A DNA stretch of 34,165 bases, from assembly GCA_964491365.1 (NCBI GenBank), contig CAZBFU010000006.1, positions 1 to 34,165 of the forward strand. The letters are read 5' to 3'. The stretch comes from an uncultured Pseudomonadales bacterium. GTDB lineage: Bacteria > Patescibacteriota > Microgenomatia > UBA1400 > MFAQ01. Shown piece by piece: positions 5,042 through 26,889 of the stretch. Position 1 is the first letter of the stretch; each line of letters starts with the position of its first letter. Made by a program: the position numbers and the translations under genes. Below the pieces are notes generated by a model. It was not told where the DNA came from and did no database searches. It saw only the letters and a program-made list of their open reading frames with translations.

Positions 5042-5042
5042 T
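5037..5042 (+). promoter_or_regulatory. Candidate -10 box (TATAAT) 6 nt upstream of the ATG at 5049
   Basis: Perfect TATAAT that contains the TAA stop (5039-5041) of the upstream gene. It is followed by tcacac and then the ATG. No Shine-Dalgarno-like motif is present. Confidence 0.3.
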
Positions 5043-5048
5043 TCACAC

Positions 5049-7697: not shown

Positions 7698-7708
7698 CCT
7701 TAGATAAG

Positions 7709-7716
7709 ATTATAAT
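7709..7716. promoter_or_regulatory. Palindromic ATTATAAT giving a TATAAT -10 hexamer on both strands of a 28-nt divergent spacer
   Basis: The + strand TATAAT is at 7711-7716, 9 nt before the ATG at 7726. The - strand TATAAT is at 7709-7714, 11 nt before the ATG at 7697. There is no Shine-Dalgarno motif on either side. Confidence 0.4.
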
Positions 7717-7725
7717 TCAAACCAG

Positions 7726-9925: not shown

Positions 9926-10328
9926 AATTACAGTACATGGTCGAAAGTTTAGTAACTTTATCAGCCCAATCAAATTTACCAGAATCTATATTGCAATCAA
10001 ATTCTTCTCTTTTCAAATCAATCCCATTAATTCGTCGCCAACTTTCCCAAACATCTGCCCATGTATTTAGAACTAATCCACTAAACATCAACTTACTTGT
10101 GGCCTGTTTATCAGCGCACTTAATCGTCACTTTGACATAATTGTCTGCGTCTACAGGTTCTCCATAAATTGCTCTGCCACATGGATCTTTTGAAAGAGGT
10201 TTGGCACTACCTTCAGAATTCACAAGAGTATCTAATCTATTTTCATTAAATCGATTCTTACTGACTAAAGCAAAAATCGCTACAGCTATGACAGTAACAA
10301 GAAGAATCGTGACAAATTTCTTATTCAT
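9915..10328 (-). CDS. Small membrane-anchored or secreted protein of unknown function
   Basis: 137 aa. It has an N-terminal signal-anchor (MNKKFVTILLVTVIAVAIFALV) followed by a hydrophilic domain with four Cys (DPCGR, IKCADK, FDCNID, MYCNY). It has an ATGA overlap with the upstream GT-C gene and an 11-nt overlap with the downstream GT-C gene. Confidence 0.6.
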   Translation of the reverse strand: MNKKFVTILLVTVIAVAIFALVSKNRFNENRLDTLVNSEGSAKPLSKDPCGRAIYGEPVDADNYVKVTIKCADKQATSKLMFSGLVLNTWADVWESWRRINGIDLKREEFDCNIDSGKFDWADKVTKLSTMYCNYVK

Positions 10329-13067: not shown

Positions 13068-13093
13068 AAGGTAGAATAAAAGTAGCCTTAACG

Positions 13094-14713
13094 ATGCACT
13101 TGTTCAAATCAAACCTCCTGTATTTAATAACGCTCATTACGATTGTCGCAATCGCTTTCTTTGTCAGGTTCGTTTCTTTATCTACCTTACCACCTGGATT
13201 AACCTGGGATGAGGCTGCCTTAGGTTACAACGCCTACTCCATTCTAAAAACAGGTCGAGATGAGCATGGAGTATTTATGCCACTTATCTTCAAATCTTTC
13301 GGTGACTACAAGCCAGGTTTGTATGTCTACCTGACGGTACCATTTGTCTCTTTACTCGGTCTAAACGAGGTAGCAGTCAGACTTCCATCTGTTATAGCCG
13401 GCACCTTAAGTGTTTTATTTCTATGTTTATTAGTAAATCAACTCTTCAAAAACAGAACACTTGGCTTATTTACAGCGTTTGCTCTTGCCCTTATGCCATG
13501 GCATATTCACTTTTCTCGTGGTGCTTGGGAAACCAATGTTTACGTCTTCTTTGTCATTTTAGCTACGTACTTATTTCTAAAAGCACAGACTTCAAATCGT
13601 TCAGTATTGCCATCAATATTAGTATTTGTCGCTACACTTTATCTTTACCAAGCGGCAAAACTCATCACTCCACTTTACCTAATTGGTTTATTTATCTTCA
13701 ATCGCTTGCATCAACCCACCTCACTTGGTCGCTTTATACGAAAAGAAAAACCAAAACTTATCTTCTATGTAATTTTGTTCGCCCTTGTAGCTTTTTATAT
13801 CTACGATACGTCTACTGGTCTTTCGGGTAACCGCTTAAGTCGACTTAGTTTGTTCAATTATCGTCCTACGACTTCAGATAGTGTCTATTTTCACTCAGTC
13901 CTCGATCAGTGGTGGCGAATGGTTTCCTCCCGCTATCTAAATCATTTTTCCAGCGAACTTTTGTTTAGTGGCAAAGTTCAAGTCATGCGAGACACCTTGG
14001 GTAAAATTGGTATGCTTCATCTAGTTGATGGATTTGCCATCTTTGCAGGGTTAGTATTTTTGATTACTAACCCCTTCAGACGCGCCTCTGTTTTAATTCT
14101 TTATTTACTCTTAATATCCCCGCTTGGAGGTAGCCTGACTCTAAGTGAATTTTCTACGGTCAGGTCATTAGTATTGGTGATTCCACTCGCGATGTTGATT
14201 GGTTTTGGACTGTACTATTTATCGATTAGATTTTCTCGACTTATATTTATACCCATCTTTTTGGTTTATGCCCACTTTGCCGTTTTAGATACTGATATTT
14301 ACTTGAATCACTCAGGCAGGTTATTGGCAGAAGGATTTAACAATGGTCATAAGGAGGCTGTCGCCATCATTCAAGCGACCAATCCAGACAAAATTGCTTT
14401 TACAGATGTTTATGGGCAACCATATATTTATTATCTTTTCTATACCCAATACGACCCAGCGAAATTCCAAAAATTAAGAAGCTTCAAAGATGGAGGAGTC
14501 GATGTTGGGTTTGTGCCAGGTTTTGCTAATGTTGAATTTAGACAGCCTCAGTATGGTGATTTGATCAATACTCCAAACAGTATTTTTGTTGGTACTTACG
14601 ATAATTTTCCAGACTCTTTTGATTTCAAAAAAGACTACATAGATTCTGTCACTGACGTGAAAGATTTAAGTGAGAAAATTGTCTTTAGAGTCATCAAAAC
14701 CAGTAAAAAATGA
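13094..14713 (+). CDS. ArnT/PMT-like GT-C fold membrane glycosyltransferase (array paralog 6)
   Basis: 539 aa with an ATG start. Motifs seen: TWDEAALGYNAYSILKTGRDEHG, GDYKPGLYVY, AVRLPSVIAG, PWHIHFSRGAWETN, LYLYQAAK, RYLNHFSSELLFSGK, and C-terminal QPYIYYLFYTQYDPAKFQK. A TAGAAT at 13072-13077 lies 16 nt upstream of the start. Confidence 0.8.
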   Translation: MHLFKSNLLYLITLITIVAIAFFVRFVSLSTLPPGLTWDEAALGYNAYSILKTGRDEHGVFMPLIFKSFGDYKPGLYVYLTVPFVSLLGLNEVAVRLPSVIAGTLSVLFLCLLVNQLFKNRTLGLFTAFALALMPWHIHFSRGAWETNVYVFFVILATYLFLKAQTSNRSVLPSILVFVATLYLYQAAKLITPLYLIGLFIFNRLHQPTSLGRFIRKEKPKLIFYVILFALVAFYIYDTSTGLSGNRLSRLSLFNYRPTTSDSVYFHSVLDQWWRMVSSRYLNHFSSELLFSGKVQVMRDTLGKIGMLHLVDGFAIFAGLVFLITNPFRRASVLILYLLLISPLGGSLTLSEFSTVRSLVLVIPLAMLIGFGLYYLSIRFSRLIFIPIFLVYAHFAVLDTDIYLNHSGRLLAEGFNNGHKEAVAIIQATNPDKIAFTDVYGQPYIYYLFYTQYDPAKFQKLRSFKDGGVDVGFVPGFANVEFRQPQYGDLINTPNSIFVGTYDNFPDSFDFKKDYIDSVTDVKDLSEKIVFRVIKTSKK

Positions 14714-16362
14714 AAAAAGCACCACTCTTGATACTCGCCATCTTTATTGGTCTAATCACCAGACTACCTTTTCTTTCCACTTACCCTAGTGGGCTTAACG
14801 CAGATGAAGCAGCCCTGGGTTACAATGCGTATTCACTTATACAAACTGGTAAAGATGAACACGGAGCAGCTTGGCCACTGGTCTTTCAATCTTTCGATGA
14901 TTACAAACCAGGAGGATACGTCTATTTGAGTTTGCCGTTTATTTATCTTCTTGGTCTTAATCCTTTAGCCATCAGACTACCTTCTGCATTATTGGGGATA
15001 TTGGCAATCTATTTTTTGGCTAAGCTCGTAGATCTACTTTTTGATCAGCAGCACCAACTTAAAATAGGAAAAATTACTTTTAGTCTTGGTGATGTCTCGG
15101 CTCTTTTCTTAAGTCTTTCGCCTTGGCATCTACATTTTTCTAGAGGAGCTTGGGAGGTAAATGCCTCGAGTTCGCTATGGCTTATTGGTCTTTTCTATCT
15201 GATTCGATTTATAAAAACTAAGAAGAACCCGATTGTGGGTATCTTACTTCTGATTTTTAGTATGTACACTTACCACTCAACTAGAGTCGTCTTACCACTG
15301 ACCTTAATCGCACTGGCTATTTTTTCAAGAGATCAAGTTGTTGAACTTTTTAAAGTAAGTAAAACGAGAAACTTAATATTTAAACTATTTGTGGTTTCAG
15401 TAATTCTGCTCATTCCATTGTCTATGCAAATGTTTTCTAAAGAAGGAAGGTCAAGGTTTGGTGGGGTCTCAGTGTTTGCCGATTCAGGCCCGCTTTGGGA
15501 AGCCCTTGAGTATCGTAATGGCCATGATAATCAAATATTAAATAAAGTCTTTCATTCAAAATACATAACTTATTCACGAAGGATACTAAGTAACTATCTA
15601 CTTCATTTTTCTCCCAAATTTCTCTTTGTCACAGGTGATGAAATTGCCAGAAGCAAAGTTCCTGGAGTAGGACAAGAGCTATTAGCGCTGTTACCATTGT
15701 TTGGTTTGGGTCTCTGGTACATGGTCAAACAAGGCAACTTCGCTTCAAAATTTATCTTGTCTTGGTTCCTCTTGGCGCCACTTGCTGCCTCTTTAACTTT
15801 CCAAGCCCCACACGCTCTTAGAGCTCAAAATATGATTTATCCACTAGTCATCATTTGTGGTCTAGGTTTCTACCAAGTCTTGATGTTGGTTCACCAGTAT
15901 AAGTTTAAATTTATTCTATTATTTTTGACTCTTCTATTAAGCTACGATTTTTCAAGATACCTCCACCAGTATTTTGTTCACTATCCAAAAGAGTTACCGT
16001 ATGCTTGGCAATACGGTTTTTCACAGATTAGTGATTACTTGACTATCAACCAAGAAAAATACTCTCAAGTTGTCATCTCAGATCGTTACGATCAGCCTTA
16101 TATACTTATTGCTTTCTTTCAAAAATATCCTCCTACTCAATTGCAAAAAGAAATAGTTCTTACTCCTCGAGACAAGTTCGGATTTTCAACCGTGAAATCT
16201 TTTTCCAAATATCAATTTAGAGCCATTAATTTTGAGCAAGATAAAGACTTAAAGAACACCCTTTTAGTTCTTGCAGATGAATCAGCTCCGGATGACAAAG
16301 TCATAGATACGATTAAAGATCCAGCTGGAAAAGTAATGTATCGTTTTATCGCTACTCCTTAA
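14710..16362 (+). CDS. ArnT/PMT-like GT-C fold membrane glycosyltransferase (array paralog 7)
   Basis: 550 aa with an ATGA overlap with the upstream paralog. Motifs seen: NADEAALGYNAYSLIQTGKDEHG, DDYKPGGYVY, AIRLPSALLG, PWHLHFSRGAWEVN, MYTYHSTR, NYLLHFSPKFLFVTGD, and C-terminal AWQYGFSQI...QPYILIAFFQKYPPTQLQK. Confidence 0.8.
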   Translation: MKKAPLLILAIFIGLITRLPFLSTYPSGLNADEAALGYNAYSLIQTGKDEHGAAWPLVFQSFDDYKPGGYVYLSLPFIYLLGLNPLAIRLPSALLGILAIYFLAKLVDLLFDQQHQLKIGKITFSLGDVSALFLSLSPWHLHFSRGAWEVNASSSLWLIGLFYLIRFIKTKKNPIVGILLLIFSMYTYHSTRVVLPLTLIALAIFSRDQVVELFKVSKTRNLIFKLFVVSVILLIPLSMQMFSKEGRSRFGGVSVFADSGPLWEALEYRNGHDNQILNKVFHSKYITYSRRILSNYLLHFSPKFLFVTGDEIARSKVPGVGQELLALLPLFGLGLWYMVKQGNFASKFILSWFLLAPLAASLTFQAPHALRAQNMIYPLVIICGLGFYQVLMLVHQYKFKFILLFLTLLLSYDFSRYLHQYFVHYPKELPYAWQYGFSQISDYLTINQEKYSQVVISDRYDQPYILIAFFQKYPPTQLQKEIVLTPRDKFGFSTVKSFSKYQFRAINFEQDKDLKNTLLVLADESAPDDKVIDTIKDPAGKVMYRFIATP

Positions 16363-17791
16363 CTTGTAGGAAGTATTTATCTAGCGGATAATTCTCTGCT
16401 TTATTGCCAACTATTTTTTCGCGTTGAGTAAGCAATATTTCTCCTTCAACTGCGCCTAAGTCATCATTCCTAGTTGGTAGTAGTTTTCCAAAGTAGACTG
16501 CTTGATAGAAGTTATTACTCTGGTTTGTTTTATCTCCAATAGTATTTGATATAACAGGATCTAGCTTTTTTTGTTCAGCTACTTTTTTTAGTACTTCAAA
16601 ATCTTTATATCCTTTCATTTCACCTACCAATGATTGGGTCACTCCAGGATAAGTCACAAAATAATATTTCAGAAAATCACCAAAGTTCAAGAAAGAAAGT
16701 AACAACAAAATTGTCACCAAGTATTTATAAGCTTTGCCTTTATAATCTCTAATCCAAACGATGCCATTAACAATCAAGAGAACCAACATTGGTAACAAAG
16801 CCAATAAGCGACTAAAACGGTGTTGCGAGCCTACAAATCCATAAAATAAGGGGGCAATGATCAAGCTATATAGAATTAATATTTTTGGATTATCTAATTT
16901 TTTCAGAATCGAAACCAAGCCAATCACTAAGAGGGGTAGGGTAGCCAGCAATAATACTCCATGCAGCCCGGTTGAATGATAAAGAGTGATATCTCCCCTC
17001 ACAAATAAATATGACCAGTCATAAGAGGATAAATAAGCGCTGGCTAGTTCATAAATAGAATTTCCAGCTGGCCTTGAACCACCCATTACAGCACCTGCAT
17101 AAAAGTGATCTAGTATTGGAATCATCAATACGAACGGTAAGATTGAAACGACAAAATACAAAACTTCAACACCAAACCACTTTTGCCACCCCACTTTTTT
17201 AACAATCATGATTATCGATAAAAATGACCACAAAGGTACTATTGCTCTCATCCCTTTATAGGTATAAAAAGCTACTCCCAAGGCTAATCCTGATAGAAGT
17301 AACCAATTTTTGGTACCAGTTTTTAGAAACTTCGAAATGGTCCATAGCCACAAAATCGTAAATGGAACAGGCATGATGTTGTCTAAACCTAGTCTTGCAT
17401 GAATAAAAAAGAGGGGAGATGAACCTAAAACTAAAACCGCCCAAAGTCCACTTTTCTTCCCTAAAACAGTTTCAGCTAATTTATAGATTAGCCACAAACT
17501 TATAACTGCGATGAGCACACTTGAGAATCGTAGCAAAAATACCGATGGACCAAATAATTTATACAAAAATACCACGAAATACTCGGTTACTGGCTGTCTC
17601 CAGTCTTTTCCTTCTATCGATAGTACAAAGACCGGCCATGATCTGCTATTTTCGTCTCGCCCAGTCTCACTTAATAGGGCAGCATTATAGCCAAAAGCCG
17701 CTTCGTCAACGGTTAATCCAGTGGGAACTTCTAAAAGCCTAAAGGTATATAAAAACGCAAAGATCAAAATAACAAACCATTTGTACAACAC
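16352..17791 (-). CDS. ArnT/PMT-like GT-C fold membrane glycosyltransferase (array paralog 8, more divergent)
   Basis: 479 aa with a GTG start at 17791 (no nearby ATG). Motifs seen: TVDEAAFGYNAALLSETGRDENS, KDWRQPVTEY, LLRFSSVLIA, FIHARLGLDN, FYTYKGMR and AYLSSYDWSYLFVRGD, followed by a short C-terminal soluble region. There is an 11-nt convergent overlap at the 3' end. Confidence 0.72.
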   Translation of the reverse strand: MLYKWFVILIFAFLYTFRLLEVPTGLTVDEAAFGYNAALLSETGRDENSRSWPVFVLSIEGKDWRQPVTEYFVVFLYKLFGPSVFLLRFSSVLIAVISLWLIYKLAETVLGKKSGLWAVLVLGSSPLFFIHARLGLDNIMPVPFTILWLWTISKFLKTGTKNWLLLSGLALGVAFYTYKGMRAIVPLWSFLSIIMIVKKVGWQKWFGVEVLYFVVSILPFVLMIPILDHFYAGAVMGGSRPAGNSIYELASAYLSSYDWSYLFVRGDITLYHSTGLHGVLLLATLPLLVIGLVSILKKLDNPKILILYSLIIAPLFYGFVGSQHRFSRLLALLPMLVLLIVNGIVWIRDYKGKAYKYLVTILLLLSFLNFGDFLKYYFVTYPGVTQSLVGEMKGYKDFEVLKKVAEQKKLDPVISNTIGDKTNQSNNFYQAVYFGKLLPTRNDDLGAVEGEILLTQREKIVGNKAENYPLDKYFLQVKE

Positions 17792-17793
17792 TC

Positions 17794-17799
17794 TATAAT
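17794..17799 (+). promoter_or_regulatory. Candidate -10 box (TATAAT) 11 nt upstream of the ATG at 17811, within a 19-nt divergent spacer
   Basis: The spacer is tcTATAATtattctaactc followed by ATG. On the - strand the same spacer holds TAGAAT (17801-17806), 9 nt upstream of the GTG at 17791. Confidence 0.35.
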
Positions 17800-17810
17800 T
17801 ATTCTAACTC

Positions 17811-18875
17811 ATGAAAATCAAAGTTAATCTAGTTAGCCATAAAGGTTCAGGTAGTAGAGGCATCGGTTTTTATGAGAAATATCTAGCTCAATCACTCCTT
17901 TCGACAGGTAAAGTAGAATTTTCAACCCTTGGGTCAGACATAATCCATTATCCTTTTTTTGATTTGTTCTATCACAGCCTACCACTCATCAAGCTTAAGC
18001 CGACTATTGTTACCATTCACGATTTAACACCTCTGGTCATGTCGAAAAATTATCCAGTTGGGATTAGGGGTAGGCTTAATTTCTTCTTCCAAAAGCTTTC
18101 TTTGCGTGGAGTTAACGCCATAATCACCGATAGTGAGAATAGTCGACGTGACATCATCAAGATTCTCAATATTAATCCAAGTAAAATATTTGTTACACCT
18201 CTTGCTTGTGATGGAGAGTATGCAAAAGTTCCTTCACACAGGCAAGTTGCTGCAACCAAGAAAAAGTATCATTTACCAGATCGTTTTTTGCTTTTCGTAG
18301 GGGGAATCAATGTCAATAAGAATTTGCTTACCCTGATTAAAGCTTCGCTAAAAGCAAACATTCCTTTAGTTCTCGTAGGTGGAGAATTTACCAAACCAGT
18401 TCTCAAAAACACTTCAATAAAAAATTTGCTTGGGTTGCAAGTTGTTCATCCCGAGGTTGCCCATGTTGAGAATATCAAAATGTACCTAAAGGAGTTCAGT
18501 CAAAATATTAGAACCTTGGGTTTTGTTAGTAACCAGGAGTTAAATCATATCTATCGTTTGGCCACTGCATACGTTCAACCGTCATTTTATGAAGGTTTTG
18601 GACTTCCTCTCCTAGAAGCCATGACTACGGGGTGTCTAACAATTTCTTCTAAAGCATCTTCGCTGCCTGAAATATATCCAAAAGGAAGTATAACTTTTAA
18701 TCCAGACTCACAGGCAGAGTTGGTCCAAGCTATAATTAGAGTTCTAAAACTTAGTCTAAGAGAGAGAACTTTACTTCGAAACGACGCCTTGGCTAGAGCT
18801 TCTGATTTCAGTTGGAATATAACGGCTTCAAAAACTCTATCTATCTACCAGAAAGTTTATTCAAGGAGCATATAA
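17811..18875 (+). CDS. GT4 family (GT-B fold) glycosyltransferase
   Basis: 354 aa. The C-terminal half carries the Glycos_transf_1 signature FYEGFGLPLLEAM (E-x7-E). RFLLFVGGINVNKN is typical of GT4 enzymes. Confidence 0.8.
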   Translation: MKIKVNLVSHKGSGSRGIGFYEKYLAQSLLSTGKVEFSTLGSDIIHYPFFDLFYHSLPLIKLKPTIVTIHDLTPLVMSKNYPVGIRGRLNFFFQKLSLRGVNAIITDSENSRRDIIKILNINPSKIFVTPLACDGEYAKVPSHRQVAATKKKYHLPDRFLLFVGGINVNKNLLTLIKASLKANIPLVLVGGEFTKPVLKNTSIKNLLGLQVVHPEVAHVENIKMYLKEFSQNIRTLGFVSNQELNHIYRLATAYVQPSFYEGFGLPLLEAMTTGCLTISSKASSLPEIYPKGSITFNPDSQAELVQAIIRVLKLSLRERTLLRNDALARASDFSWNITASKTLSIYQKVYSRSI

Positions 18876-18876
18876 T
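18871..18876 (+). promoter_or_regulatory. Candidate -10 box (TATAAT) 10 nt upstream of the ATG at 18887
   Basis: Perfect TATAAT that embeds the TAA stop (18873-18875) of the GT4 gene. It has the same arrangement as the hexamer at 5037-5042. Confidence 0.3.
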
Positions 18877-18886
18877 AGATCTTCAC

Positions 18887-20023
18887 ATGCCTATTCGTAA
18901 CATTATCAAAACTTATTTTACCTGGCGAATACTCGTCAGCTTAGCCGCCATACCAGCGGCTTTTTTATTGCCCCTCATTGTTCGTTATTCATTACAGAGC
19001 GGAAACTTTGAAGCAGATCATCTTTTACAAATGTGGGCAAATTTCGACGGACCTCGATATCTACATTTGGCTCAAATTGGTCAAATTGAACGATGGGATT
19101 CGCTCCTTCTGACACTTTTCCCCTTGTATCCATGGCTTATCGGAATCTTTAGCCTGATTTTTTCACCACTAGTTTCTTCACTGCTAATTTCCAATATATG
19201 TCTCGTCATCTCTTTAATTTTGCTTTATAAGCTTGTAAAAATGGATTTTGACTCTAAAGTTGCAAAAATGAGCCTCTTACTACTGCTTATTTTTCCCACT
19301 TCGTTTGTTTTAGGCAGTGTCTATACAGAATCATTGTTCTTACTACTTTCAATTGGAAGTATTTATCTGATGAGGCAGAATAGATTTATGTGTGCAGGTG
19401 TCTTGGTCAGCTTAGCAGGCTTAACAAGATTCCTAGGTGTAGCCTTAATTCCGGTTTTGTTGATCGAATACATCCAGGCTGTTAAGTCAAATAAATTAAA
19501 ACTGTTTGGTCCTCAATTTGCAGGCGTTATTACTGCCCCATTGGGTTTAATTAGTTACTTATATTTTCAGTACGTCCGCATCGGCGATCCTTTATTTCTT
19601 TTGAATTCATATTCAGATTTTATGTTAAGTTCTGGTTTTGAGAAATTTATCCTCCCTCATCAAGTCTTTTACCGGTATCTTAAAATGTTTATCTTCTCTG
19701 GAAATCGCCTCGATCCTTTTTACTTTACGGTTGTCTTAGAACTTGTGGTGGTGGTTTTAAGCTTTGCTTTTAGTGTTTTGGCCCTCAAATATACGCGAAA
19801 ATCATATGCAGTCTTCAGTTTGTTAATCCTCTTCATTCCAATGTTCTCTGGAACTTTCCATTCGCTACCCAGGATTGTCTTGGTCGCTTTTCCTATCTTT
19901 ATTATGGCGGCTAAATTTATCAGTAGAGTATCACTCCGATTTCAACAAATAATTTTTACCTTCTTACTACTAGTAGGTTTTATTTGCATCTCGCTTTTCA
20001 CTCGAGGCTACTTTGTGGTCTAA
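18887..20023 (+). CDS. Polytopic GT-C-type membrane mannosyltransferase-like protein (PIG-V / Mannosyl_trans2-like)
   Basis: The ORF track starts at a TTG at 18812, inside the GT4 gene. I prefer the ATG at 18887 (MPIRNIIKTYFTWRIL...). The product is about 378 aa and very hydrophobic. The first loop, MWANFDGPRYLHLAQIG, resembles the W-D-x-x-x-Y/F-x-x-I-A-x-x-G motif of PIG-V-like enzymes. The family assignment is tentative. Confidence 0.5.
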   Translation: MPIRNIIKTYFTWRILVSLAAIPAAFLLPLIVRYSLQSGNFEADHLLQMWANFDGPRYLHLAQIGQIERWDSLLLTLFPLYPWLIGIFSLIFSPLVSSLLISNICLVISLILLYKLVKMDFDSKVAKMSLLLLLIFPTSFVLGSVYTESLFLLLSIGSIYLMRQNRFMCAGVLVSLAGLTRFLGVALIPVLLIEYIQAVKSNKLKLFGPQFAGVITAPLGLISYLYFQYVRIGDPLFLLNSYSDFMLSSGFEKFILPHQVFYRYLKMFIFSGNRLDPFYFTVVLELVVVVLSFAFSVLALKYTRKSYAVFSLLILFIPMFSGTFHSLPRIVLVAFPIFIMAAKFISRVSLRFQQIIFTFLLLVGFICISLFTRGYFVV

Positions 20024-20047: not shown

Positions 20048-21319
20048 GTGATCTCAAAACTAAAAATCACCCCTGCTTTTATTAATGCAAGTTTCTACTA
20101 TTTTAGTTCATTCGGTATAGGCATCCTTAGATACTTTTTTCACCTAATTTTGCTTCGTTTTTTAAACCCTTCCTCATATGGAGAATTCTTAGCTTATCTT
20201 TCTCTCATATTTTTACTATCAGTACCTTCAAGTACTATTGGAACCTTAGTTATTAGGCGAGTTAGTCGCTTGAGTAAGGTAGATTACTCTCATACAAACT
20301 CATTTTTCTATAAAATTCTTAAGATTTTTTCTCTGCCTACAATAGTAGCCGCATTTATTTTAGTCTTGATTGCCCCTTTTCTAGCAAATCTCTTTAAGTC
20401 ACAGAATGATGCTTTTATAATCTTGGCTTTCTTTTTAGTGATCTCACTTCCTTCAACAATCTTGAGATCAATTTTAACTGCTCAAGAGAAATTGAGTCTT
20501 GTTTCACTTATTGGAATAGTCGAAGTAGTTTTCACTTTGGTATTCACCTTTATATTCTTGTCCTGGAAGCCTGATCCAATTATCCCTGTTATTATCCAAG
20601 TCACATCAGTCATCTTTGGATGCCTATTAATGTTTTTTCTACTCTCAAAGTGGCTATGGCCAGTAAATCACAGTTCAAATGATTCACATCTAAATCTCAA
20701 AGGTGATTTAGTCCAATCTTTTATTTACTCTATATCCTTAGCTAGTTTAATTTCTTCAGATAATCTTACTCTGCGTGTAATTTTAGATAGTCACACCTCC
20801 GGTTTTTATGCCGCTCTTTCCACCATTGCTAGGTCTTTTTATTTTGCCCTATCACCATTGGCTACTATTGTATTAAGCGTTGTAGCCAATAGAATTTCAG
20901 ATCACAAATCTCCAAGAACTGTTTTTTTGAAACTCTTCTTTACTCAAGCAGGATTAAGTTTTGCTGGTTTAGGACTAGTTCTCTTTGTGCCGTCGCACAT
21001 CATCGCCCTTTTAGGTGGATCAACCTATCAATCTTTAGTTGGCTTATTACCAATTCAAGTAGCAGCTTCACTATTTTTATCACTCAATGTATTTTTTGTA
21101 TCCACCCTCATGGGTTTGCATTATCGCCATGCCTCAATTCTGATCCTAATCGTGGCGCTTGCCCAACCAATTGCCCTTACCTTTGTAAGAAGTCTTTCAG
21201 ATGGAGTCTATTTAAACTTTTTAGTTCAAGCTTTAGGAAGTGTGTTGCTCGGCTTCTTCTGTATCAGTATTTTGGTACAATTCCGCCCAGATGGCACAAA
21301 AGTTAAAGCAAGTAGATAA
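20048..21319 (+). CDS. MOP-superfamily polysaccharide flippase (Wzx/Polysacc_synt-like)
   Basis: 423 aa with a GTG start (first start codon after an in-frame stop at 20030-20032). It appears to have about 12 hydrophobic segments. The N-terminal LRYFFHLILLRFLNPSSYGEFLAY resembles the conserved R-x-L-x-P-x-x-Y-G stretch of Polysacc_synt proteins. Confidence 0.6.
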   Translation: MISKLKITPAFINASFYYFSSFGIGILRYFFHLILLRFLNPSSYGEFLAYLSLIFLLSVPSSTIGTLVIRRVSRLSKVDYSHTNSFFYKILKIFSLPTIVAAFILVLIAPFLANLFKSQNDAFIILAFFLVISLPSTILRSILTAQEKLSLVSLIGIVEVVFTLVFTFIFLSWKPDPIIPVIIQVTSVIFGCLLMFFLLSKWLWPVNHSSNDSHLNLKGDLVQSFIYSISLASLISSDNLTLRVILDSHTSGFYAALSTIARSFYFALSPLATIVLSVVANRISDHKSPRTVFLKLFFTQAGLSFAGLGLVLFVPSHIIALLGGSTYQSLVGLLPIQVAASLFLSLNVFFVSTLMGLHYRHASILILIVALAQPIALTFVRSLSDGVYLNFLVQALGSVLLGFFCISILVQFRPDGTKVKASR

Positions 21320-22097
21320 TCAACTTCTCTCTGTTGTAGTTCCAGTCTACTCATGCCCAACGATTGCTACAGATCTAAAGAATGTTAAACAAAGTTTAGA
21401 AACATTAAAAGAGCCTTACGAAATAATCTGTGTCGTTGATGGCAGTAGTAGCCCCAAAGATAAAACGTTCCAACGCGCTTTGAAAGTTCAGTCGAACAAC
21501 ATCAAAGTTTATACCTATAGCCAAAATAAGGGTAAAGGATACGCAATTCGATATGGTATGGCCAAATCATACGGTGGCATCGTCTCTTTCATCGATGCAG
21601 GAAGTGACCTAGAACCTCGTGGATTAGCCATGGCACTTGCACATATGAGATGGTACGATGCAGATATCGTGGTCGGCAGCAAACGTCATCGTGCTAGCCT
21701 GGTTAATTATCCTTGGCAAAGGCGAATCTTGTCTTTTATTGTTCAATTAGCAACAAGATTTTTCTTTGGAATCAACGTCTCAGACACACAAACAGGCTTA
21801 AAGTTGTTCAAGAGGGGAGTTCTAAAGAAAGTTTTACCACGTTTACTGGTTAAAAGATTTGCCTTCGATTTAGAAATTCTCGCCGTAGCTAGTAGGCTTG
21901 GCTTTAACAGGATTTACGAGTCACCTGTGGTTCTCAATTATAACTTTGCCTCTACTGTCAAACTGTTTGGAAAAAACTCTGTTCAAGAGTTCTTTATCGA
22001 TTACCTTGCCATCATTTATCGAACCCATTTGCTTCGCTATTACGATGATGCCCAGCACGATTTGTGGAAAAAAGACCCTGATCTGCGTATTATTTAA
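21291..22097 (+). CDS. GT2 polyprenyl-phosphate sugar synthase (Dpm1/GtrB/ArnC-like), second copy
   Basis: I prefer the ATG at 21291 (MAQKLKQVDNQLLSVVVPVY); the ORF track starts at a GTG at 21240. Motifs seen: ICVVDGSSSPKD, KGKGYAIRYGM, IDAGSDLEP and VSDTQTGLKLFKR (D-x-Q-x-G-x-K-x-F motif). It overlaps the flippase 3' end by 29 nt. Confidence 0.72.
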   Translation: MAQKLKQVDNQLLSVVVPVYSCPTIATDLKNVKQSLETLKEPYEIICVVDGSSSPKDKTFQRALKVQSNNIKVYTYSQNKGKGYAIRYGMAKSYGGIVSFIDAGSDLEPRGLAMALAHMRWYDADIVVGSKRHRASLVNYPWQRRILSFIVQLATRFFFGINVSDTQTGLKLFKRGVLKKVLPRLLVKRFAFDLEILAVASRLGFNRIYESPVVLNYNFASTVKLFGKNSVQEFFIDYLAIIYRTHLLRYYDDAQHDLWKKDPDLRII

Positions 22098-23577
22098 GCA
22101 TCTTCTCGATCAATAACATCCCTTGATCATTTGTCGGAGCATATTTTTTTGCCAAGTTAAAAGATTCTAATGCTTTTTTTTTGTCATCCATGGCAATAAA
22201 TGTGACGGCCATAGATCTGGCTGCCTGCCAGATTGTAGGGTTTAATTCCAGACATTTTTTATACATCTCCACGGCATTCTGATACTTGCCCAACATACGC
22301 AAACTTTCTCCTTTATGAAACCAGGTGGCAGCATTGTTTGGGTTAATACTAAGAGACAGATCGAATAATTTTATTGCTTTGTTGTAATCACCTTTTAAGT
22401 TGTAAACGTAACCTAAGTTTAAGTGAGTATGTGGGCTCGATGGAGAAGTTTTCGCTGTGGCTGTCCACAAAGCTTCATTACTTCTCCAATCAGAAATTCT
22501 AAACCCAGTTCGCAACACTAAAGCTAGCCCTAAGAGAAAGACAAGTAAGTACAAATAGTCTTTGTTTATCTTTCTATAAAATATTCTCTCTAGAAGATTT
22601 ACAGTTATGACACTAATTCCTACCAAACTTAAATAGCTATATCGTTCAGCCACAACCCAGGTTAAACCAGTAGGTATCAAGGTTACCCCTAATGCCAAGA
22701 CACTCCATGCCAGCCAGAATCCAGTCTCTTTTTTTCGATAAATCAAGAATATTGCAAATGCCACTATCGATATGGTGATCAATAAACCAAGACCAAATCC
22801 CAAAAATCCGGTGCTTAATTCAGATTGATAAAGACTTAGCTTTTCAGGGAAGTAGTATAAAAAAGTATACTTAGAAATCGCAATTGGGATTGATATGAGA
22901 GGATTTTTAGTATCTACTTGCTGGCCTGTATCTACCTCGATTAATTGCTGTCTACTCGAAGCTTTGGTAATCATTAAGTAGGCAAAAAGTACACTCAATA
23001 TAGTCATGAACACAAGAATAATTTTCTTGTCTTTGTTTGCAGGTGTTAGAAAATTACGGATTATAAGGATCGGAATCAAGGATGTTGCCAAAATGTTTAC
23101 TGATATTGCACACACAAAAGTTACCAAAGACCAAAAGTATTTAACTTTGCTTGTATGTGTATACAAATAGTATGTAAGTAACGCAAAAAAACCCATAATC
23201 GAGTATGGAGCACCTGAAATCCAAGTTATGCTTTCAACCGTTAGTGGATGCAGTCCGAATAAGCCGCTTATCGATAACGCCCTCCATTCACCATTTTTCC
23301 GAAAAATTTTATAAACCATCAAAACACTTCCCAAATGAAAAAGTATATTTACCAATCGATACAAGATAGGCGATTGTCCTGAAACTATCGCGGTCATATA
23401 TCTGATCAAGACAAAAACAAATCCCAACTTGTTTAGATTCAAGCTTTCCGAGAAGTTCGTTAAATTAATATTTTCTGCAATTCCGGTCACATCATCAGAC
23501 AAAAAAGGGAAATTTAAGCTAAAACTGTGTACTAAGAAAATAAAAATTAATAGAAACACCAAATACCATCTGCTCAT
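22090..23577 (-). CDS. GT-C membrane glycosyltransferase fused to C-terminal TPR repeats (TMTC-like architecture)
   Basis: 495 aa with an ATG start. The N-terminal loop is FPFLSDDVTGIAENINL (DD motif), followed by about 10 hydrophobic segments. The C-terminal ~120 aa carry TPR-like repeats (LNLGYVYNLKGDYNKAIKLFDLSLSINPNN, ATWFHKGESLRMLGKYQNAVEMYKKCLELNP). Confidence 0.7.
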   Translation of the reverse strand: MSRWYLVFLLIFIFLVHSFSLNFPFLSDDVTGIAENINLTNFSESLNLNKLGFVFVLIRYMTAIVSGQSPILYRLVNILFHLGSVLMVYKIFRKNGEWRALSISGLFGLHPLTVESITWISGAPYSIMGFFALLTYYLYTHTSKVKYFWSLVTFVCAISVNILATSLIPILIIRNFLTPANKDKKIILVFMTILSVLFAYLMITKASSRQQLIEVDTGQQVDTKNPLISIPIAISKYTFLYYFPEKLSLYQSELSTGFLGFGLGLLITISIVAFAIFLIYRKKETGFWLAWSVLALGVTLIPTGLTWVVAERYSYLSLVGISVITVNLLERIFYRKINKDYLYLLVFLLGLALVLRTGFRISDWRSNEALWTATAKTSPSSPHTHLNLGYVYNLKGDYNKAIKLFDLSLSINPNNAATWFHKGESLRMLGKYQNAVEMYKKCLELNPTIWQAARSMAVTFIAMDDKKKALESFNLAKKYAPTNDQGMLLIEKMLK

Positions 23578-23602: not shown

Positions 23603-24595
23603 ATGAAGGTGTTAATTTCCGTCATTATTATTGATTACAAGAAAAAGAATCCATATCTTTCAGAGACATTTGCCGCTCTTTCTAAACAAACATTCACAGA
23701 ATTCGAAGTGATTTTGCTTTGTGATCATCCCACAAACTACCATTTCAAGAATTTAATTCAGAAGCACTATGATGGTGTGTATACCTCTCCAGCTAAGAAA
23801 AGAGATGACGGTGCGGCTTTGGCCAAAGGTCAAATACTTGCCTTTATCGATGATGATGCATATCCTGATTCAAAATGGTTAGAAAATATAGCGACAAAAT
23901 TTAACGGACACGAGAATCTTGTCGCCATTGGTGGTCCTGGAATTACCCCACCCCACGTCAGTCTAACCGAAGCTGCTTCGGGATGGGTTAGTGCATCGCC
24001 TCTTGGCTCAGGGCCATATGGATATAGATTCATGGTGGCTTCATCAAGAGAGGTTGACGATTATCCAAGTATGAATTTAGCTGTTAGAAAATCAGTGTTT
24101 AACTCAGTTGGTGGGTACGACACCAATTACTGGCCAGGAGAAGATACCAAATTGTGTTTGGATTTAATTAATAAAGGAGGAAAAATTAGATATTATCCAG
24201 ATGTCCTGGTTTTTCATCATCGACGACCACTTTTTAAAAAACATCTGATTCAAAATGGGCAGTTTGGACTTCATCGAGGCTTTTTTGCTAGAGTTCTACC
24301 ACAGACTTCTGCCAGAGTCAGTTATTTTGCTCCATCTGCTTTACTGCTCGGTTGGATTTACTTGATCTTAGCAAGTTTCATCCCAACAATATCTATACCA
24401 ATCTTCCTTAACCTTGGAAAAATTCTCACTAGTTTGTATCTGTTAGCCGTTTTGATTAATTCTGTCTGGATCGGCATTAAATCAAGTTCGATACTGCACT
24501 TTATTATTAGTCTGATCAGTGTTCCTATCACTCATTTGTGGTACGGTGGGAAATTTATCCAAGGTTTTCTTTTTACAACCAAACTCACACGTTAA
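23603..24595 (+). CDS. GT2 family glycosyltransferase with C-terminal transmembrane segments
   Basis: I prefer the ATG at 23603 (MKVLISVIIIDYKKKNPYL). The ORF track starts at a TTG at 23429, which is antisense to the neighbouring gene. Motifs seen: FEVILLCDH, AFIDDDAYPD (DxD) and WPGEDTKLCLDL. The C-terminal ~90 aa are hydrophobic. Confidence 0.75.
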   Translation: MKVLISVIIIDYKKKNPYLSETFAALSKQTFTEFEVILLCDHPTNYHFKNLIQKHYDGVYTSPAKKRDDGAALAKGQILAFIDDDAYPDSKWLENIATKFNGHENLVAIGGPGITPPHVSLTEAASGWVSASPLGSGPYGYRFMVASSREVDDYPSMNLAVRKSVFNSVGGYDTNYWPGEDTKLCLDLINKGGKIRYYPDVLVFHHRRPLFKKHLIQNGQFGLHRGFFARVLPQTSARVSYFAPSALLLGWIYLILASFIPTISIPIFLNLGKILTSLYLLAVLINSVWIGIKSSSILHFIISLISVPITHLWYGGKFIQGFLFTTKLTR

Positions 24596-26166
24596 ACGCC
24601 CTCCTTAGGGGTTAACACTTTGTTGAGCCAAATCATCATTTTCATTCCCAAACTTTTCTCTTTACTATTGATGGTCAGATTATAGTAATGATTAGAAACT
24701 CTACGTAGTGCTCTAATACCATAAATAAAAATAAACTCAAAATCTCTTAGTCGCCCATTTTTCAAAAAAAGTATTTGTCTATACAAAAATTTAGGAGAAA
24801 TGGCGATCGTGTACATTTTCCTTACTGCTTCATAGTATTCTTCATGTGGAATAGGCGTTTTCACAATTAACTTGCTCATATCATGATCGCTGTAGTTTTT
24901 AGCCAGTAAAACTCCTCTGTCGATACATTCTTGATGGTATGGGGTGTAATCAAGTGGTGTACAAAGGGTTACTTGTAAGGTTCTAGAAAGACCCTCATTC
25001 ATTAGAAATGTCACGTAGTCAACAGTTTCTTGTAACATTTTTCTCGTCTCCCAGTAATATCCAACCATTACCGTCAAGTGAGGATGTAAACCGTATTTAG
25101 TCATCCATCTCAAACACTGTTCTATATATTTCTTTTGATAACCTTTATTTAACCTTCGTAAAGTTGCCTCACTACCTGACTCCAGACCTATTAATACAAA
25201 GCGAAAGTTTGCTCGAGCCAATAACTTAATAGTTTCTTCATCAAGATATTCAAAACGTGTGTTAATTCCAAAATAACACCCTTTTTTGTGTAAACCTCTA
25301 GCGATGATACCTCTAGCAAATTCTTTTGCTTCTTCTCCGCGATACCAAACCCCAGAATCGTCGAAAATTTCCCTTACCCCATACTTAACAATCAACTCTT
25401 CATATTCATCTAAACTTTTCTCAACTTTCATCTTGGTAAAGGTAAGTTCGGGTCCGTTATAGCGGCAGAAAGTGCATTTTCCAAACATACAGTCTCTTAT
25501 TACACTAGTTGCATAAGTACCTGGAGTGCGTAGAAAGTTGCCATTTTCATATGCATAGTTTTTCCAAGAGACTAATTCACGATCAATTAAGGGAGATTTA
25601 TTTACAGCTTCAACCTGGCGAAAAGCTCCAGTGTCTCTAATTTCATCTTTATTCACCCTTATTGTTAGACCTTCAATAGTGCAGGATTTCCTCCAAGACT
25701 TGTGGTCTCGAATGTAGGGTAGAAGTCTGGTAAGAGCAAAGTCAACATGGTTACTTTTTACAACTATGTCAGTTTTACTGTTTTCTAAAGTTTCTTCTGG
25801 TTTTCTCATCGAGTGATAACCGGTCATTACAAAAATTGTCTTTGGCATGATCCTCTTTAAATCGTTGGTTAAATCCCAATAAAATTGCATGACAGGTGTT
25901 GTACTCTCAAAAACTACCACGTCTGGTTTGGATTTAATCAAATCATTTTTCCACTCAACAAAGGTCTTTCTAGCAGCATTGCCGTCGTCCCAACGAACGG
26001 AGAAATTTAAAGATTTTAACCACGTAGCTGCTTGAGCATAAGTTACAGGTAAAAGGTAAGTTGGTGTCTTGAAAAATTGAACGTTACGATTCTGTGAAAC
26101 CATTGCTTTCTGGCCTCTTTCATTCACAATCGGTGGATATGAGATTGCAATTTTAAGTTTTTTCAT
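24592..26166 (-). CDS. B12-binding-domain radical SAM enzyme (class B-like, possible C-methyltransferase)
   Basis: 524 aa. The N-terminal Rossmann-like region (DVVVFESTTP...IFVMTGYH) resembles a cobalamin-binding domain. The cluster motif is RDCMFGKCTFCRY, i.e. Cys226-x4-Cys231-x2-Cys234 (nt 25465-25491, which I re-translated from the DNA). IGLESGSEATLRRLNKGY is typical of B12-rSAM proteins. There is no Cys-rich SPASM tail. Confidence 0.75.
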   Translation of the reverse strand: MKKLKIAISYPPIVNERGQKAMVSQNRNVQFFKTPTYLLPVTYAQAATWLKSLNFSVRWDDGNAARKTFVEWKNDLIKSKPDVVVFESTTPVMQFYWDLTNDLKRIMPKTIFVMTGYHSMRKPEETLENSKTDIVVKSNHVDFALTRLLPYIRDHKSWRKSCTIEGLTIRVNKDEIRDTGAFRQVEAVNKSPLIDRELVSWKNYAYENGNFLRTPGTYATSVIRDCMFGKCTFCRYNGPELTFTKMKVEKSLDEYEELIVKYGVREIFDDSGVWYRGEEAKEFARGIIARGLHKKGCYFGINTRFEYLDEETIKLLARANFRFVLIGLESGSEATLRRLNKGYQKKYIEQCLRWMTKYGLHPHLTVMVGYYWETRKMLQETVDYVTFLMNEGLSRTLQVTLCTPLDYTPYHQECIDRGVLLAKNYSDHDMSKLIVKTPIPHEEYYEAVRKMYTIAISPKFLYRQILFLKNGRLRDFEFIFIYGIRALRRVSNHYYNLTINSKEKSLGMKMMIWLNKVLTPKEGV

Positions 26167-26169
26167 AAC

Positions 26170-26835
26170 TTAAAAGAAACTTTCTGTAAAAATTTGATTT
26201 CCGTTTACCCCAGCACTACTTAAGATGTCATAAACCTCGTTTATCATTTCACTATTTCCACACAAATAATAGTATGCTTTAAGATCTATCGGATGGCATT
26301 TTAAATAGTCAGTAACTCTACCAGCAAAATTACCTGAATCATCTCTTGAAGTACAGGAAACATAGTTTTTTCCATAATCTTTGGCGTCATAGCTTTCAGC
26401 CGCTGTTCTGATTCCGTGAATAATTTTATAGTTTAGAGATGGATATGAGGTCACATAAGAGTGAAACGGCGCAATACCCGTACCAGTGCCAATAAAATAA
26501 TACTTTGTCGATTTGTTTGTAGGATCAGTTATTATGAATTTTCCATAAGATCCATCTATTTGCACTTTGTCACCTTTTTTCAGTTTGGATAACGCATTTG
26601 AAACTGCACCGTCTTCAACTAATTTAATGAGAAAATCTAACCTACTCTTATTATTAACAGATGAGTATGTAGAATATTCACGGTTAATACCACTTCCAAT
26701 AATACCTAAATTTACACACTGTCCAGGAGTAAATACAAACCCATCTCGCTTCAGAGATAGACAAAAAGTTGAATCGCTCAGCCATTTAACCAAGACAACT
26801 TCACTCGATGAACCTACATTACTCAAATTCTTCAT
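26170..26835 (-). CDS. Ferredoxin-NADP reductase-family flavoprotein (FAD_binding_6 + NAD_binding_1)
   Basis: 221 aa. Motifs seen: R-x-Y-S FAD motif (NREYSTYS), GAVSNAL, GSYGKF, the NAD(P) motif GTGTGIAPF, LCGNSEMI, and a C-terminal aromatic tail TESFF. It ends 3 nt upstream of the radical SAM gene. Confidence 0.75.
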   Translation of the reverse strand: MKNLSNVGSSSEVVLVKWLSDSTFCLSLKRDGFVFTPGQCVNLGIIGSGINREYSTYSSVNNKSRLDFLIKLVEDGAVSNALSKLKKGDKVQIDGSYGKFIITDPTNKSTKYYFIGTGTGIAPFHSYVTSYPSLNYKIIHGIRTAAESYDAKDYGKNYVSCTSRDDSGNFAGRVTDYLKCHPIDLKAYYYLCGNSEMINEVYDILSSAGVNGNQIFTESFF

Positions 26836-26843
26836 AAAAACAG

Positions 26844-26849
26844 ATTATC
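26844..26849 (-). promoter_or_regulatory. Candidate -10-like box (GATAAT on the - strand) 8 nt upstream of the ATG at 26835
   Basis: The reverse complement of the 54-nt spacer reads ...gaaGATAATctgtttttATG. Confidence 0.25.
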
Positions 26850-26873
26850 TTCATAACATATCATATTCCATCA

Positions 26874-26879
26874 TATAAT
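26874..26879 (+). promoter_or_regulatory. Candidate -10 box (TATAAT) 10 nt upstream of the ATG at 26890
   Basis: Perfect TATAAT in the AT-rich 54-nt divergent spacer. TTCATA at 26850-26855 could be a weak -35 with an 18-nt spacer. Confidence 0.4.
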
Positions 26880-26889
26880 TCTTACTCAG

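Follow-up and report, generated by a model that had tools for sequence, protein, structure and literature searches.

A radical SAM enzyme encoded next to its own FNR-type flavoprotein in bacterial glycan loci: a candidate electron-supply pair and its glycosyltransferase partner

Introduction

Radical S-adenosylmethionine (SAM) enzymes have mostly been studied with artificial reductants, and their physiological electron donors are rarely known. The questions of where such an enzyme would obtain its electrons, and on what it would then act, are raised together by a stretch of 34,165 nucleotides (nt) from an uncultured bacterium of the Patescibacteriota (class Microgenomatia; contig CAZBFU010000006.1 of assembly GCA_964491365.1, here called the window). 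In this window, a gene for a ferredoxin-NADP+ reductase (FNR)-type flavoprotein ends just ahead of a gene for a radical SAM enzyme (rSAM), in the midst of genes for glycan synthesis. A preliminary description, drawn up from the letters of the window, had proposed a self-contained pair of a reductase and a B12-type rSAM with an unusual cysteine spacing, which would make a C-methylated or otherwise radical-modified sugar for the glycan.

Our answer, which we regard as somewhat better than an even bet, is that the two genes would form a co-transcribed unit whose flavoprotein is the private electron input of rSAM, and that this unit would belong to a glycan cassette that modifies a sugar handled by a family 2 glycosyltransferase (GT2). 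What appears to be new, from the comparison of sequences, is a subfamily of rSAMs of class B architecture set apart by an obligate, adjacent and carrier-less FNR, lodged within a GT2-rSAM glycan cassette; the individual parts are familiar.

The Gene Pair and the Conservation of its Linkage

The open reading frame (ORF) list and the junction sequence agree on the position, common direction and spacing of the two genes (Table 1), as the preliminary description had them. The FNR-like frame closes with ESFF and a TAA codon, followed by gtt and by the ATG of rSAM, and this 3-nt gap makes the co-transcription and translational coupling of both genes likely. According to the same two sources, the unit in the window consists of these two genes alone. 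The divergent region of 54 nt in front of it contains a sole promoter-like match (26850-26879), on the plus strand, and in the scan of this region for promoters and terminators the count was not above that of shuffled controls.

The flavoprotein exceeds the gathering cut-offs of both PF00970 (FAD_binding_6; 52.1 bits, cut-off 21.1) and PF00175 (NAD_binding_1; 24.7 bits, cut-off 22), and the Pfam scan shows in it neither a ferredoxin nor a flavodoxin domain, and no [2Fe-2S] (Fer2) domain. Its motifs R52-E-Y-S55, G118-T-G-x-A-P-F and Y190-L-C-G-N (with C192-G193), as well as the C-terminal F220-F221, are invariant in 24 orthologs, the nucleotide motif of the window protein being G118TGIAP. By sequence, the closest solved proteins are the FAD/NADH domain of MmoC (1tvc) and then the flavodoxin reductase of Escherichia coli (1fdr), and the match to the NCBIfam models of MmoC and BenC is limited to profile positions ~106-343, i.e., to their flavin/NAD part. 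Judged by its sequence, the protein of 221 residues (aa) is an FNR-type FAD/NAD(P)H oxidoreductase that is minimal, though complete, and lacks a carrier domain. In turn, rSAM reaches 61.1 bits with PF04055, against a cut-off of 29.5. The family assignment that had been asked for therefore holds for PF04055, PF00970 and PF00175, whose cut-offs are passed, and not for PF02310, which stays below its own.

The pairing is far from being a peculiarity of this window. In a tblastn comparison of the window FNR with 80 genome loci, the counted loci were the 71 that extend at least 750 nt upstream of rSAM. An FNR ortholog (37-58% identity) is present in 70 of these 71, always on the strand of rSAM. For 60 loci, the distance from its end to the downstream rSAM is below 400 nt, and the median gap is ~32 nt. 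The exceptions are a locus without any FNR (L033) and another in which it lies 2 kb away (L024). The linkage is also reciprocal: starting from two FNR homologs, rSAM was the next gene in both cases. The FNR-rSAM pairing is far beyond chance, and the conserved linkage expected of a self-contained pair is indeed found across many phyla. Neither ORF clustering nor a simple Cys-motif scan detected a conserved ferredoxin or flavodoxin gene in these loci. In L083, a small gene for a single Fer4 ferredoxin is found two genes away from the pair. A natural fusion of the two proteins, with the C-terminus of FNR read through into the N-terminus of rSAM (P0150, ...KSFF-RNNV-MKIAISYPP...), was considered and set aside, given that both of its ends look like frameshifts and that it is probably a sequencing artefact.

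The rSAM itself has more than 1000 database relatives, and full-length identity to it is 68-79% for each of the 120 closest clusters; in data with one genome per species, its orthologs are 61-78% identical. The hosts comprise Patescibacteria (Microgenomates, Gottesmanbacteria, Shapirobacteria), Planctomycetia/Kuenenia, Nitrospinae, Pelagibacteraceae, Gemmatimonadales, Elusimicrobia, Leptospiraceae, Legionellaceae, Methylophilaceae, SAR324 and one archaeal metagenome-assembled genome. Accessory genes for surface glycans typically show such a patchy distribution combined with very high identity. No relatives were found in viral contigs or among PLSDB plasmids.

The Cysteine Triad and its Spacing

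The three-cysteine motif of radical SAM enzymes is present in rSAM as a variant of the canonical CX3CX2C. Re-translation of nt 25465-25491 (minus strand) yields CMFGKCTFC, that is C226-x4-C231-x2-C234, in agreement with the earlier reading, and RDCMFGKCTFCRYNGP is invariant in 43 aligned rSAM orthologs, the additional residue being conserved in all of them. No alternative cysteine triad exists among these 43 sequences, and the alignment leaves C226, C231 and C234 as the only conserved candidate set of cluster ligands.

The suggestion that a spacing of four residues distinguishes this enzyme, by contrast, had to be abandoned. CX4CX2C occurs in OxsB, whose structure is solved (PMC9204698), in GenD1, GenK and Sis14 (PMC4340712), and in a megacluster listed by RadicalSAM.org (PMC9477430), and the queuine lyase 6p78 displays it as RPCIWGKCSFC. 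Furthermore, relatives at 25-42% identity carry loops of X3 (CPMKCSFC), X4 (CWWGKCTFC), X7 (CWWRKDGGCTFC) or X9 residues at the same aligned position. In these alignments, the loop between the first two cysteines is simply length-variable in the rSAM lineage.

Conserved C297, C402 and C414 were also considered as ligands of an auxiliary Fe-S cluster. This option was discarded because, in the AlphaFold2 (AF2) model, C297 stands at the N-terminal and C402 at the C-terminal end of different barrel strands, which makes them unlikely neighbours.

Two further observations concern related triads. Several relatives at 30-42% identity from the sister clade described below (among P0123, P0125, P0128, P0142, P0145 and P0167) bear inteins (Intein_splicing plus LAGLIDADG_3), one of them also with an HTH_7 domain, inserted beside the cysteine-triad loop of the rSAM domain. 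Additional rSAM genes of class B-like type, with CX3CX2C and 21-28% identity to the window enzyme, exist in the same glycan loci of Nitrospinae and of a Patescibacterium (L029, L051, L054, L061-L064), without an FNR of their own.

Fold, Family Membership and the Question of Cobalamin

The AF2 model of rSAM (predicted local distance difference test, pLDDT, 83; predicted TM score, pTM, 0.86) combines a five-stranded Rossmann-like N-terminal domain with a partial TIM barrel. The N-terminal strands span residues 5-10, 56-61, 83-87, 111-115 and 134-136, with helices between them, and the domain includes a conserved hairpin insert, GQKAMVSQNRNVQ. Foldseek relates the model with probability 1.00 to many radical SAM structures. 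The best of them is AprD4 (6fd2), with E = 1e-18 and a TM score of 0.67-0.78 (0.77 when normalised to the target), and the next are full-length matches to the cobalamin enzymes MgmA, TsrM, OxsB, CysS and TokK.

As for the cofactor, PF02310 (B12-binding) aligns with residues 50-136 at 24.7 bits, under its cut-off of 32.1, and a precomputed match to it is recorded for 58 of the 120 closest protein clusters; a comparison of the first 200 residues with PDB sequences gave no meaningful match, but two spurious low-scoring ones. Three motifs that surround the cobalamin tail were compared, namely the GxSxL-type beta3 loop, the Gly(-Gly) on beta4 and the Gly-Glu at the start of alpha5 (PMC9204698). The beta3 loop of rSAM reads F-E87-S88-T-T-P, in which the Ser is kept, and beta4 has T115-G116, with one Gly; at the start of alpha5, K-S-N-H-V-D142 stands in place of Gly-Glu, while the sister clade has GGD[YF]D. 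Fold and motifs thus describe an enzyme of class B-like fold that may or may not use cobalamin. Of the earlier label "B12-type", the Rossmann-like N-terminal fold stands; in view of the PF02310 score, the absent Gly-Glu, the missing sequence match in the PDB and the identity of the best structure, the label is supported no further than that. AprD4 is not known to depend on cobalamin. We dropped a further argument against cobalamin, namely that SAR11 bacteria, which also carry the pair, do not use B12, because SAR11 is described as a B12 auxotroph (PMC9296465).

None of the curated NCBIfam models is reached by rSAM: the best is HpnJ (TIGR03471), at 97.2 bits against a cut-off of 577.6, followed by BchE (TIGR02026; 87.3 against 481), and the AprD4 model (NF033070) gives 33.2 against 500. 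The methylase models PhpK (61/600), RiPP C-methyltransferase (50/282) and KedN5 (25/700) also remain far below their cut-offs. By these scores, rSAM lies outside HpnJ, BchE, AprD4, PhpK and any other curated family, and the JGI names "anaerobic Mg-protoporphyrin cyclase" and "YgiQ" are over-annotations. The HpnJ model scores the sister clade higher, at 153-190 bits; no hpn genes were found in the window or in related loci. No paper on an FNR-rSAM cassette was found in the literature searched.

A Membrane Glycosyltransferase as the Older Partner

The account of a two-gene system proved incomplete, as it missed a membrane-anchored GT2, here called GT2tm, at 23603-24595, whose gene is convergent with that of rSAM and overlaps it by 4 nt (24592-24595). 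In the ORF list, GT2tm starts from a TTG at 23429, which falls within the adjacent TPR/GT-C gene; however, in an identical contig (L001) the protein is called with 330 aa, and the true start is likely the ATG at 23603, which leaves a divergent spacer of 25 nt. The AF2 model (pLDDT 92) has long C-terminal helices and a fold like that of the membrane-embedded GT2s hyaluronan synthase and BcsA/cellulose synthase, a likeness that does not identify the substrate of GT2tm.

In the ORF clustering of the loci, GT2tm (~330 aa) stands directly upstream of FNR or directly downstream of rSAM, and of the 43 eligible loci of the FNR-linked clade, 33 have an ortholog of it (33-56% identity) no farther than 3.6 kb away. 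A further comparison is with a sister clade of 80 metagenome loci, whose rSAM shares 34-40% identity with that of the window and bears the motif CWWG[KR]CTFC. An FNR-like gene is found in 0 of these 80 loci, against 58 of 80 for the GT2tm family (36-55% identical to that of the window), mostly immediately upstream of rSAM and on the same strand. For this reason, FNR can be seen as a clade-specific addition and GT2tm as the older partner: the gene comparison makes the GT2-rSAM couple ancient, and FNR a later acquisition of one clade. The FNR-linked clade is further distinguished from its sister by several invariants, which are C297, C402, ESTTP for ExKTP, TGYH for GDH and KSNHVDF for GGD[YF]D.

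The remaining accessory set is the same in the sister clade, and comprises a Wzx-like protein (a cluster found in 13 loci of the FNR-linked clade and in 23 of its sister), ArnC/PgfS-like and "c9" GT2s, and genes for short-chain dehydrogenases/reductases (SDRs). Four kinds of neighbour recur, namely a UDP-glucose dehydrogenase, a UXS/ArnA-like SDR, an ArnC/PgfS-like GT2 and the Wzx-like protein, a combination that resembles a pathway providing lipid-linked sugar donors; the clusters "c9" and "GT2-PPsynth", which match the gene at 21240..22097 of the window, recur in related loci. SDR genes often lie directly upstream of FNR, as in the loci of SAR11 and Methylophilaceae. In the window, the GtrII-TPR gene (22090-23577) separates GT2tm from the PpgS/ArnC-like GT2, while the two adjoin in related loci of Patescibacteria.

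A Possible Route for Electrons and Sugar

In the reading that we favour, FNR and rSAM would make up one co-transcribed unit of a mobile and very strongly conserved glycan-modification cassette. Electrons would pass from NAD(P)H to FAD and from there to the [4Fe-4S] cluster of rSAM, as well as to cobalamin if it is bound, and SAM would be cleaved reductively without recourse to a flavodoxin or ferredoxin of the host. When a radical SAM enzyme consumes SAM stoichiometrically, two electrons are required per turnover, i.e., one NAD(P)H. The rSAM would then modify, by radical chemistry, a sugar made or used by GT2tm at the cytoplasmic face of the membrane and probably linked to a lipid, and the modified intermediate, once flipped, would serve the many GT-C (PMT_2) transferases encoded in this locus. 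C-methylation, ring contraction or carbocycle formation, and dehydration or deoxygenation are the candidate chemistries.

FNR is proposed as the electron donor because it appears as a complete electron-transfer flavoprotein, with neither a carrier domain nor an addition for substrate binding, because it would be translationally coupled to rSAM, and because FNR-family reductases serve rSAMs elsewhere (Fpr-flavodoxin; Cbr1-Dph3). The rSAM, for its part, would act on the sugar of GT2tm because GT2tm is linked to it even in the clade that lacks FNR; and since this sister clade works without FNR and keeps GT2tm, FNR would be a dispensable accessory for electron supply and the GT2 the core partner. 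Both the supply of electrons from FNR to rSAM and a contact between the two proteins are inferred from genes and synteny.

Several known systems offer partial parallels. Cbr1 and Dph3 are the physiological reductants of Dph1-Dph2 in yeast (PMC8251694) and, as with Fpr and flavodoxin in E. coli, an FNR-family FAD enzyme leads electrons from NAD(P)H to the cluster of an rSAM, just as is proposed here. These chains differ in that a one-electron carrier (flavodoxin, Dph3) is interposed and in that their genes are not paired with that of the rSAM, whereas here no carrier gene is conserved and the gene of the reductase precedes that of its presumed client by 3 nt. Another parallel is provided by AscD/DdhD (E3), an FNR-family flavoprotein dedicated to the Fe-S sugar enzyme AscC/DdhC (E1) in O-antigen loci for 3,6-dideoxyhexoses. 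The likeness lies in a flavoprotein that, within a glycan locus, serves a single Fe-S enzyme of sugar modification. Nevertheless, E3 possesses a plant-type [2Fe-2S] domain, absent from the window FNR, and E1 is a pyridoxamine 5'-phosphate enzyme and not an rSAM.

On the side of rSAM, the best structural match, AprD4, shares the two-domain organization with a cobalamin-domain-like N-terminus. It is a radical SAM 1,2-diol dehydratase acting on an aminoglycoside sugar, with AprD3 as its NADPH-dependent partner (PMC5461906). Yet the identity is of only 16-17%, the context is an antibiotic pathway (C3'-deoxygenation of apramycin) instead of a surface-glycan cassette that includes a membrane GT2, and AprD3 reduces the keto product, unlike an electron-transfer flavoprotein of FNR type. 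Among curated sequence families, HpnJ is the one closest to the window rSAM as well as to the sister clade. This putative rSAM remodels the sugar put on a membrane lipid, a hopanoid, by the GT2 HpnI (PMC13459092), and the GT2tm-rSAM couple would follow the same logic of a GT2 and then an rSAM. For HpnJ, with which the calditol synthase Cds is grouped here, the differences reside in the scores of 97-190 bits against 577.6, in the lack of hpn genes nearby, in the absence of an FNR partner of HpnJ and in that GT2tm does not match the HpnI model. To our knowledge, the chemistry of HpnJ has not been demonstrated in vitro. Finally, OxsB, GenD1 and GenK have the same CX4CX2C as rSAM; OxsB is among the structural matches, and the substrates of GenD1 and GenK are sugars. 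None of them showed a sequence relationship to rSAM in a HMMER comparison with the PDB. They are cobalamin-dependent and have been reconstituted with generic reductants, none has a dedicated FNR gene, and OxsB, with 730 aa, has extra domains.

Several observations weigh against the route outlined above. The direct reduction of a [4Fe-4S] cluster by FAD, without ferredoxin or flavodoxin, is thermodynamically demanding, and no bacterial precedent for such a carrier-free reduction was found in the literature searched. Roughly one in four eligible loci lack GT2tm, among them those of SAR11, which read SDR-FNR-rSAM-ArnC-like GT2. In another locus (L084, 1222-7601), the pair lies immediately downstream of a Rrf2-SufC-SufBD-SufS-NifU operon for Fe-S assembly, with no GT2tm within 6 kb. 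In addition, the substitutions proper to the FNR-linked clade (C297, C402, ESTTP, TGYH, KSNHVDF) may reflect a different chemistry in which the flavoprotein takes part directly.

Weighing the Alternatives

If the pair is taken as such, the chemistry of rSAM could be conceived in two main ways, in both of which FNR would remain the source of electrons. One of them, tentative and well short of even in our estimate, is a rearrangement or elimination on the sugar that is cobalamin-independent or, at least, non-methylating: a 1,2-diol dehydration of the AprD4 kind, or a ring contraction of the HpnJ, Cds or OxsB kind, on a glycolipid made by the GT2. AprD4 is not only at the top of the Foldseek list but also one of only two sequence matches in the PDB, HpnJ is the best NCBIfam model for both clades and its succession to HpnI on a membrane glycolipid parallels GT2tm-rSAM (PMC13459092), the ring-contraction enzyme OxsB shares the spacing of the triad, and the Gly-Glu motif for cobalamin was lost in the FNR-linked clade; all this has to be set against scores far under the cut-offs of HpnJ and AprD4, against the low identity to AprD4, against a context that is neither that of hopanoids nor that of aminoglycosides and against the role of AprD3 as an NADPH reductase of the substrate, which makes its analogy with FNR a loose one. 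The other, which we find rather doubtful, is that rSAM would be a cobalamin-dependent class B C-methyltransferase acting on an unactivated sugar carbon, with FNR giving both the electron for SAM cleavage and that for the passage from Cob(II) to Cob(I). The demand for two electrons per turnover would suit a dedicated NAD(P)H reductase. The fold resemblance to the methylases MgmA, TsrM, CysS and TokK, the PF02310 matches among the closest clusters, the invariant E87-S88-T-T-P and G116 at the positions of the GxSxL and Gly-Gly motifs and the Cx4Cx2C shared with the sugar C-methylases GenD1 and GenK point in the same direction. Against them stand the sub-threshold PF02310 score of the window protein itself, the K-S-N-H-V-D that replaces Gly-Glu where the sister clade has GGD[YF]D, the distance from every methylase model, and the fact that the best structure and the nearest curated families (AprD4, HpnJ, BchE) are not methylases. 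Rearrangement or dehydration therefore comes out slightly above C-methylation, by a small margin, and nothing points specifically to the C-methylated sugar that the preliminary description had put forward.

The two remaining explanations question the role of FNR or that of the locus. FNR might not be the donor for SAM cleavage at all, and would rather reduce a substrate radical or keto intermediate through rSAM, in the style of E3/AscD with E1/AscC, or act as a free-flavin or cobalamin reductase. FNR is confined to the clade with substitutions of its own, invariant C297 and C402 included, the AscD/E3 reductases are dedicated to a sugar-deoxygenating Fe-S enzyme in O-antigen loci, and the SDR genes so often found directly upstream of FNR would agree with it. 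We nevertheless judge it unlikely: the [2Fe-2S] domain with which E3, BenC and MmoC transfer electrons is absent, we know of no FNR-fold protein that acts directly as a sugar ketoreductase, and the 3-nt coupling and ~99% co-occurrence fit an obligate protein partner. It is still more improbable, to the point of being a marginal option, that the pair has a housekeeping or otherwise non-glycan function and that its position in glycan loci is incidental. The pair behind the Suf operon of L084 and the quarter of eligible loci without GT2tm within 3.6 kb would fit such a function, but glycosyltransferases, sugar-nucleotide enzymes and flippase-like genes abound in almost every other locus, in phyla unrelated to one another, the same linkage with GT2tm recurs in the sister clade, and the patchy spread at high identity is that of surface-glycan genes.

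Significance

Returning to FNR as the electron donor, a reductase located 3 nt upstream of its client and kept across a dozen phyla constitutes a ready-made and testable candidate for a physiological partner, and this rSAM family may be easily reconstituted with NADPH alone. Being 61-79% identical across Patescibacteria, SAR11, Nitrospinae, Planctomycetes and others, and belonging to no curated family, rSAM probably marks a widespread and undescribed modification of surface glycans, with Polynucleobacter wuianus as a cultured carrier of the cassette. More speculatively, and with considerably less confidence than we place in the pair itself, this could be the first bacterial rSAM with a carrier-free NAD(P)H supply, in which FNR would dock on the flavodoxin-fold N-terminal domain and reduce the cluster or cofactor. 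The GT2-rSAM cassette would then install an undescribed radical modification of a sugar, for instance ring-contracted/carbocyclic or C-branched, on the lipid-linked precursors of glycans in environmental bacteria of great abundance, namely SAR11, Nitrospina, Patescibacteria and freshwater Polynucleobacter/Methylophilaceae.

Other Features of the Window and of Related Loci

Table 1. Coordinates of the gene pair, of its parts and of neighbouring features in the window.
Feature	Position	Strand	Basis
FNR-type FAD/NAD(P)H oxidoreductase, 221 aa	26170..26835	-	ORF list; PF00970 and PF00175 above gathering cut-offs
Spacer from FNR stop codon to rSAM start codon, 3 nt	26167..26169	-	reads ...tttctttTAAgttATGaaa
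Radical SAM enzyme (rSAM), 524 aa, two-domain class B-like architecture	24592..26166	-	ORF list; PF04055; AF2; Foldseek
rSAM N-terminal Rossmann-like (cobalamin-domain-like) domain, residues ~1-160	25687..26166	-	sub-threshold PF02310; AF2 strands
rSAM candidate cluster-binding triad C226-MFGK-C231-TF-C234	25465..25491	-	translation; invariant in 43 orthologs
Radical SAM core, residues 222-384	25015..25503	-	PF04055 alignment, profile positions 3-165 of 166
Divergent intergenic region, 54 nt, from the FNR-rSAM unit to the GT4 gene at 26890	26836..26889	.	ORF coordinates
Membrane-anchored GT2 glycosyltransferase (GT2tm), 330 aa	23603..24595	+	Pfam GT2; AF2; synteny
PpgS/ArnC-like GT2, candidate polyprenyl-phosphate sugar synthase	21240..22097	+	NCBIfam PpgS and ArnC-type matches
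Wzx-like multi-pass membrane protein	20048..21319	+	PF01943 (Polysacc_synt) E = 4.8e-4, below threshold
GtrII-like GT-C membrane domain fused to C-terminal TPR repeats	22090-23577	-	

The glycan-locus setting that had been attributed to the pair is amply supported by the gene content of the window, which is rich in GT-C, GT2, GT4 and methyltransferase genes: it has at least ten GT-C genes of the PMT_2/ArnT-like kind, several for GT2 and GT4 enzymes, the Wzx-like gene and four for SAM-dependent methyltransferases. A scan of the window for transfer RNA genes gave none.

In one cultured carrier, P. wuianus (GCA_018881935.1; L165, 6585-14076), FNR, rSAM and GT2tm are flanked by a CDP-alcohol phosphatidyltransferase gene, and the cassette is followed by genes for a Fom1-like cytidylyltransferase-phosphoenolpyruvate mutase, a phosphonopyruvate decarboxylase (Fom2-like) and an iron-dependent alcohol dehydrogenase (FomC-like), which suggests a phosphonate-decorated glycan at this locus. 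As a general explanation, a link with phosphonates, by Fom3-like C-methylation of cytidylyl-2-hydroxyethylphosphonate, was rejected, since phosphonate genes are found in no other locus except at the edge of L058.

The PMT_2/ArnT-like GT-C genes of the window are paralogs of ~400-560 aa, about ten in number, that occupy positions 65-20023 on both strands, with GT2 and GT4 genes between them, and they constitute an unusually large battery of transferases using lipid-linked sugars for a single locus. At the other end, between 30075 and 33043, the four methyltransferase genes are consecutive; three of their products are class-I paralogs (252, 252 and 238 aa), and the fourth is an FkbM-type protein of 243 aa.

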